From Escherichia coli (GTDB lineage: Bacteria; Pseudomonadota; Gammaproteobacteria; Enterobacterales; Enterobacteriaceae), in the NCBI RefSeq assembly GCF_003334765.1, contig NZ_QOWT01000004.1: a stretch of 64,000 nucleotides of DNA, one strand, 5' to 3'. The position numbers and the translations under genes are program-made. Shown here piece by piece: positions 51,332 through 52,085 of this stretch; the first letter of the stretch is position 1; each line of letters opens with the position of its first letter. The notes under the pieces are model-generated. The model was not told where the DNA came from and made no database searches. It worked only from the letters and a program-made list of their open reading frames with translations.

Positions 51332-52085
51332 GATGAAACCCCGCTTTTTTTATTGATCGCACACCTGACAGCTGCCTCTAAAATAGAAGCACCAGAAGTA
51401 CTGACAGATGTTGCACTGCTGTGTGTAGTAATAAATCAGCCCTAAATGGGTAAAATATAAAACTAATGGATTACATCTGATTTCAATCTAGCCATTACAA
51501 ATCTTAAATCAAGTGTTAAACATGTAACTAAATGTAACTCGTTATATTAAAATGTTAACCTTAAGGTTTTATTAAGTTTAGAAATGATAGAAAAGTTGTA
51601 CATTTGGTTTTTATTGCACAATTTTAAAAAATCATACAAATGGTGATAACTTACTAATAATGCATATAAAAAATATTTCGGTGTAGTCCTTTCGTCATGT
51701 AAAACGTTCTTGTTTTTTCTCCACACCTCCGTGGACAATTTTTTACTGCAAAAAGACGAGGTTTGTCACGGCTTGTGCGCAAGACATATCGCAGCAATCA
51801 GCGACGGGCAAGAAGAATGACTGTCTGGTGCTTTTTGATAGCGGAAAGCGGAGATTTAAAAGAAAACAAAATATTTTTTTGCGTAGATAACAGCGTATTT
51901 ACGTGGGTTTTAATACTTTGGTATGAACTAAAAAAGAAAAATACAACGCGCGGGTGAGTTATTAAAAATATTTCCGCAGACATACTTTCCATCGTAACGC
52001 AGCGTTAACAAAATACAGGTTGCGTTAACAACCAAGTTGAAATGATTTAATTTCTTAAATGTACGACCAGGTCCAGGGTGACAAC
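51332..52085. promoter_or_regulatory. csgD-csgB divergent intergenic regulatory region (754 bp, AT-rich)
   Basis: Unusually long AT-rich non-coding interval between divergent csgDEFG and csgBAC; known binding hub for OmpR/CpxR/IHF/H-NS/RpoS and source of the long csgD 5' UTR. Confidence 0.85.

Follow-up and report, generated by a model that had tools for sequence, protein, structure and literature searches.

The csgD-csgB intergenic region of an Escherichia coli strain close to K-12: a canonical curli control region with a single, most likely neutral substitution

The csgD-csgB interval and its surroundings

The window, by which we mean the whole analysed stretch of 64,000 nucleotides of E. 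coli DNA (contig NZ_QOWT01000004.1), carries the divergently oriented curli genes csgD and csgB. The 754-bp divergent control region that an earlier note on this DNA had placed between them corresponds exactly to the gap between the two start codons. The interval, its flanking genes and the other long gaps of the window are as follows.

51332-52085: csgD-csgB intergenic control region, 754 bp, GC 34.6% (bounds from the open reading frames and the K-12 annotation)
50681-51331, minus strand: csgD coding sequence, left flank, 216 aa, identical to K-12 b1040
52086-52541, plus strand: csgB coding sequence, right flank, 151 aa, identical to K-12 b1041
44965-45699: ycdU-serX gap, 735 bp, GC 55%, with three RtT repeats within
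41691-42276: pgaA-dgcT gap, 586 bp, GC 34.0%
putP-efeU gap, 542 bp, GC 48%

The annotation of K-12 MG1655 has the same 754-bp gap, at NC_000913.3 1103197-1103950. None of the listed RefSeq records has an annotated feature within the interval, and no tandem repeats were found in the csgD-csgB spacer.

The region had been described as extremely AT-rich, which is true of its average (GC 34.6% versus 49.7% for the window) and of its poorest 30-nt windows (13-23% GC). The composition is nevertheless uneven: the csgD-proximal arm goes down to 13-27% GC, while a GC-richer island in the middle of the spacer, at ~51710-51840, has 40-57% GC, and the pgaA-dgcT gap, at 34.0%, shows that a low average is not peculiar to this locus. 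The gaps were ranked from the K-12 annotation mapped onto the window. In this ranking the csgD-csgB interval is the longest by 19 bp only, the runner-up being the ycdU-serX gap, and when protein-coding genes alone are counted it is exceeded by the gap between ycdU and ghrA (44965-46020, 1056 bp). The statement that it is "by far" the longest non-coding interval therefore has to be withdrawn.

Two of the other long gaps have features of their own. The ycdU-serX region contains 3.4 tandem copies of a 181-bp unit at 45096-45718; each full copy, downstream of tRNA-Ser serX, matches the Rfam family RtT (RF00391) with 46.3 bits against a threshold of 45, and two of the 14 substitutions that separate the window from K-12 (45253 and 45293) fall within these repeats. 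The pgaA-dgcT gap (41691-42276), which adjoins the PGA exopolysaccharide operon, is a second long divergent spacer. It resembles the csg spacer in being long, AT-rich, divergent and adjacent to a biofilm-matrix operon, although its sequence and its regulators are unrelated.

The window aligns collinearly to MG1655 1050676-1115865 with ~99.97% identity, the differences amounting to 14 substitutions and two single-base insertions in 64 kb. The csg region of MG1655 has the same length (754 bp), the same flanking genes, the same orientation and all of the located elements described below, but its surroundings differ: MG1655 carries copies of IS3D and IS1D and has a disrupted efeU. In the window, IS3D, which lies between dgcT and ymdE in K-12, is absent at 43636-43678, and IS1D is absent at the left end (1-74); the strain is thus very close to K-12 MG1655 but is not MG1655 itself. 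The efeU gene (30747-31586) is an intact open reading frame in the window, with an extra G at 30861 relative to K-12 1081461, versus a frameshifted pseudogene in MG1655.

Control elements and their conservation among enterobacteria

A scan for CsgD with one genome per species yielded 80 loci from ~25 enterobacterial genera, and csgB was found divergently upstream in 76 of them. The spacer in these 76 loci has a median length of 760 bp and ranges from 742 to 802 bp; shorter spacers occur only in two species of Kosakonia, with 586 and 589 bp, and on a single Escherichia contig, with 733 bp. Motif searches, inspection of the sequence and the cross-genus alignment placed the following elements in the window.

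51485-51490, minus strand: csgD P1 -10 hexamer TAGATT, -7 to -12 from the start site (motif search)
51513-51538, minus strand: OmpR activator box GTTACATTTAGTTACATGTTTAACAC, -34 to -59 from the csgD start site (motif search)
51592-51625: MlrA palindrome AAAGTTGTACA-N12-TGCACAATTTT, -113 to -146 from the csgD start site (read from the sequence)
51625-51640: conserved block TAAAAAATCATACAAA, -146 to -161, 0.87 across genera
51951-51961, plus strand: CsgD box CGGGTGAGTTA, upstream of csgB, identical in K-12 (motif search)
52068-52083, plus strand: conserved csgB translation-initiation region, 0.95 across genera

We take TAGATT at 51485-51490 to be the -10 element of csgD P1 and GTTACATTTAGTTACATGTTTAACAC at 51513-51538 to be the OmpR site; likewise, AAAGTTGTACA-N12-TGCACAATTTT at 51592-51625 is presumably the MlrA site and CGGGTGAGTTA at 51951-51961 presumably the CsgD site. 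The block TAAAAAATCATACAAA is possibly an IHF-type site. The functions given to the sites come from the literature; sequence identity, positions, conservation and allele frequency were read directly from the alignments and counts.

Most of these elements coincide with blocks that are conserved across genera. The TAGATT hexamer lies inside the block 51477-51494 (0.91), the OmpR box overlaps the blocks 51501-51527 and 51530-51538 (0.88-0.92), the left MlrA half-site (51593-51602) shows no variation among 67 non-Escherichia species, and the CsgD box lies inside the block 51950-51972 (0.90). Taken by side, the conserved blocks near csgD comprise its Shine-Dalgarno sequence, the untranslated segment 51391-51425, the start site with the -10 element, the OmpR box, the left MlrA half-site and 51625-51640, and those near csgB comprise the CsgD box with its neighbouring blocks and the csgB Shine-Dalgarno region. 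The distances between the MlrA site, the OmpR box and the -10 element are nearly fixed in the 76 sequences, at 72-74 and 38-39 bp, and a further element spacing is 21 bp. A scan of the spacer with consensus promoter patterns returned two matches versus 4.0 +/- 1.8 in shuffled sequences, and neither of them was csgD P1; such a scan is uninformative for a promoter of the sigma-S type. In strain E09, a 10-bp deletion at ~51522-51531 falls inside the assigned OmpR box.

Salmonella enterica offers a close parallel. Its csgD-csgB (agfD-agfB) region, described as a multi-factor hub with an OmpR D1 site at -51 (PMC13304067), has the same divergent layout and, with 760 bp in subsp. diarizonae, comes close to the 754 bp found here. 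Its blocks for the -10 element, OmpR, MlrA, the CsgD box and the untranslated region are conserved with the same spacing (38, 73 and 21 bp), and identity to the window is ~74-80% in the promoter, the 5' untranslated region (UTR) and the csgB-proximal part versus 56% in the central 320 bp, where the shuffle level is 48%.

Within the species the spacer is almost universal, since at least 80% of it is held by 5330 of the 5426 complete E. coli genomes. A match is absent in 54 genomes, and less than 80% is held in 42 more (H190, for example, retains only the last 61 bp). Six of the matches are on records that carry a plasmid label, and for 17 records the identity is no more than 80-90%.

The leader of csgD was located from the published data and from the following matches.

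51332-51479, minus strand: csgD 5' UTR, 148 nt, start site at 51479 or 51478 (UTR length from PMC4152358)
~51359-51414, minus strand: SL1, published position transferred to the window
51316-51341, minus strand: SL2, from ~51341 into the csgD coding sequence
51387-51478, minus strand: match to Rfam RF02752 (ES056), 119.7 bits, gathering score 43, E = 2.4e-22
51391-51425, minus strand: most conserved block of the 5' UTR, a putative sRNA pairing zone made up of the 5' half of SL1 and the bases just upstream

The start site at 51479 (or 51478) follows from the published UTR of 148 nt, in which SL1 extends from -83 to -28 and SL2 from -10 to +16, and which is a target of OmrA/B, McaS, RprA, GcvB and RydC (PMC4152358, also for the locations of the sRNA sites). 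The minimum-free-energy fold of 51311-51479 contains hairpins at 51358-51415 and 51317-51341, matching the published SL1 and SL2. Together with the Rfam match, this fold bears out the long csgD 5' UTR that had been expected here. In the 67 non-Escherichia species, the majority base in 51391-51425 has a frequency of 0.92, and identity to the window in this block is 0.91-0.95.

The covariance-model match to RF02752 is full length (model positions 1-92 of 92) and above the gathering threshold. ES056 was defined by RNA-seq as a short transcript of 92 nt, has no demonstrated function, and has its 5' end within 1 nt of the experimentally determined start site (Rau et al. 2015, PMC4676190). In the window, too, the 5' end of the match and the csgD start site lie no more than 1 nt apart. 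ES056 is here the initial 92 nt of the csgD leader, and the match implies no independent gene. A terminator-like hairpin with a T-run was seen early in the csgD 5' UTR, aligned to ~51439 (minus strand), in 15 of the 76 sequences; this position precedes the 3' end of ES056, and the E. coli sequence itself fails the hairpin criteria.

The substitution at 51848

The spacer is identical to that of K-12 (NC_000913.3 1103197-1103950) at 753 of 754 bases. The exception is a transition:

51848: SNP relative to K-12 MG1655, G here, A at K-12 1103713

No other difference from K-12 occurs in the 4875 bp that extend from csgG to ymdA. K-12 shares every base of the 5' UTR with its sRNA pairing region, of the -10 element and of the sites assigned to OmpR, MlrA and CsgD. 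At the density found over the whole window (14 substitutions in 64 kb), 0.17 substitutions are predicted per 754 bp, and a single SNP in the spacer is therefore unremarkable.

Which of the two alleles is ancestral, and how common is each? Exact 81-mers centred on 51848 were searched in 5426 complete E. coli genomes. The G version was found exactly in 59 of them; the A version was exact in 1503 and matched in 5139. A is present in all 10 other E. coli strains that were aligned (K-12, B, O157:H7, O145, Nissle 1917, UTI89 and four other diverse strains) and in all six other Escherichia loci retrieved, including those of E. albertii and E. whittamii. Judged from these counts and from the A shared by other E. 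coli and Escherichia loci, G at 51848 is the derived and rare allele, at a frequency of roughly 1-2%.

The SNP lies at -369 from the csgD start site and at -238 from the csgB ATG, 103 nt before the CsgD box. None of the located elements contains it, neither the 5' UTR with its sRNA zone and the core promoter nor the sites assigned to OmpR, MlrA and CsgD. Footprinting of the csgD promoter used a probe from -335 to +67, and the mapped ranges are -31 to +54 for RcsB, -201 to +28 for H-NS and -308 to -192 for RcdA (PMC12388358, PMC3535384); at -369, the SNP is beyond the probe and beyond all three ranges. The 15-nt bin that contains it has a cross-genus identity of 0.24, the lowest in the spacer, and there is no cross-genus conserved block within 65 nt on either side. 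Sites that vary within E. coli cluster near it (alignment columns 549-605), in the most polymorphic stretch of the spacer, which also includes a T-run of 5-8 T; within the species, almost no variation is seen in the 5' UTR, in the core promoter or over the csgB-proximal 140 bp. A strict consensus search of the spacer for CRP full and half-sites, CpxR, RcdA and IHF gave no exact matches, the patterns probably being too stringent, so the search yields nothing that bears on the SNP.

The earlier note had singled out the interval as the place where strain-specific regulatory differences would sit. The alignment to K-12 gives one SNP, outside every located control element, and this near-identity essentially refutes the idea at the level of the sequence. 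A strain-specific promoter or operator variant, of the class of the mutations in Salmonella PcsgD and the csgD promoter of O157:H7, would lie in a mapped factor site, the core promoter or the 5' UTR, and the change at 51848 falls in none of them. From the low conservation and the absence of a mapped site, the A-to-G change appears most likely to be neutral.

The central spacer and the reading of the whole region

Between the two conserved arms lies a segment in which sequence and length behave differently.

51641-51913: central spacer without any cross-genus conserved block, including the GC-richer island at ~51710-51840
51626-51945: central segment, length 316-331 bp, coefficient of variation 1.1%
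csgD 5' UTR, lengths 145-170 bp, coefficient of variation 4.6%
csgB-proximal segment, lengths 118-160 bp, coefficient of variation 6.0%

Outside Escherichia, Citrobacter and Salmonella, the identity of the central part to the window is at the level of shuffled sequences; in distant genera, it is 0.47-0.53 for the segment 51626-51945 versus 0.47 after shuffling. In 74 of the 76 sequences, the distance from the right MlrA half-site to the CsgD box is nonetheless 333-347 bp, and the two others are the Kosakonia species, with ~216 bp between the same anchors. The flanking segments are better conserved in sequence and yet more variable in length than the central one. The GC-richer island occurs at the same offset in the 67 non-Escherichia species. 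Among E. coli strains, recurrent variation in length was seen at one place of the spacer only, a T-run at 51873-51880 that has 5-8 T.

These data raise the question of what, if anything, is maintained in the middle of the region. An unannotated small protein or small RNA hidden in the island at ~51710-51840 would account for its GC content, which approaches the genome average, and the island region does offer two open reading frames of 64 aa (51763-51957, plus strand; 51798-51992, minus strand) and, on the plus strand, a terminator-like hairpin at 51720-51735. Both reading frames, however, contain the T-run at ~51873-51880, whose variation among E. coli strains (5-8 T) shifts the frame, and the island shows no cross-genus sequence conservation, no match to an Rfam family at E <= 1 and no RefSeq annotation. 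For these reasons a hidden gene was rejected and is regarded as very improbable. A conserved intrinsic terminator or insulator in mid-spacer was rejected as well: two terminator-like sites were found versus 0.7 +/- 0.9 in shuffled sequences, so the hairpin at 51720-51735 is not above expectation, and none is conserved in position (in the central part, the position is shared by at most eight of the 76 sequences). A different proposal, which would add to the main explanation, is that the central spacer is architectural, its length and composition mattering and its sequence not, for example through bridging by H-NS and IHF or coupling by supercoiling. The nearly constant interval between the MlrA half-site and the CsgD box (74 of 76 sequences) speaks for it, as do the low variation in length (1.1% versus 4.6% and 6.0% for the flanks) at shuffle-level identity in distant genera and the like placement of the island in 67 non-Escherichia species, and it fits the intrinsic curvature and the H-NS/IHF interplay described for the csg region (PMC12713406). 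Against it, the constancy is known for the csg spacer alone and the comparison is with its own flanks, not with other long orthologous spacers; the differences in length, from -4 to +10 bp, do not fall at multiples of a helical turn; 216 bp suffice in two Kosakonia species; and known low-affinity sites within the spacer (to -308), those of RcdA (PMC3535384) and Salmonella OmpR D3-D6 (PMC13304067), could by themselves resist insertions and deletions. An architectural role is, on balance, a tentative suggestion. In its more specific form, the central ~320 bp (~51626-51945) may be a "sequence-free ruler", in which selection acts on the geometry or topology that links the complexes upstream of csgD and csgB and not on specific sites, and we consider this form equally doubtful.

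The remaining alternative concerns the SNP itself, which lies in this same central part. The derived G could be functional, altering an unmapped protein site or the bending of the DNA (an A4 tract becomes A3) and thereby retuning curli expression in its carriers. Single-base changes in the csg region are reported to alter curli expression in Salmonella and E. coli (PMC13304067, PMC11278976, bioRxiv 10.64898/2026.04.22.719398), point changes in the spacer have been reported to do so, and SNP patterns track host or source (PMC13304067, PMC5007776, bioRxiv 10.64898/2026.04.22.719398). Moreover, the G is the sole change in 4.9 kb of csg locus, is common to at least 59 genomes from varied hosts, and stands beyond the DNA covered by the footprint probe (PMC12388358). 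The local evidence points the other way: position 51848 falls in the least conserved bin (0.24), conserved blocks are absent for 65 nt in both directions, E. coli strains differ most from one another in just this stretch, and both promoters are far away. A single SNP is what chance would give at the divergence of the window from K-12, and common descent explains the sharing of G by 59 genomes. We therefore regard a functional G as improbable, although less so than a hidden gene.

The reading that we prefer, to which we give a probability of about 0.9, is that the interval is the canonical divergent curli control region of E. coli in its K-12 form and that its SNP is most likely neutral. On this reading, csgD P1, a sigma-S/sigma-70 promoter, would fire leftward ~148 nt upstream of the csgD ATG, using the -10 element TAGATT with the sites of OmpR, MlrA and other factors upstream. 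The long csgD 5' UTR would then fold into SL1 and SL2 and form a docking platform for Hfq-dependent sRNAs that repress CsgD synthesis; rightward, CsgD on the CGGGTGAGTTA box would activate csgBAC. The region would in this way consist of two AT-rich regulatory arms separated by a central spacer unconserved in sequence. Since every mapped element has the K-12 sequence, cis-encoded curli regulation in this strain should be that of K-12.

The csgD-csgB control region is already known and is ordinary in this strain. The SNP at 51848 is a usable lineage marker (~1% of complete genomes) at a locus already used for source tracking. If the length and composition of the central spacer were under selection, this would bear on the coupling of the divergent curli promoters and on the reported bimodality of curli expression. 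For the strain itself, the main effect is to settle a question: the master switch for curli and biofilm formation has cis-regulatory DNA of the K-12 type here.
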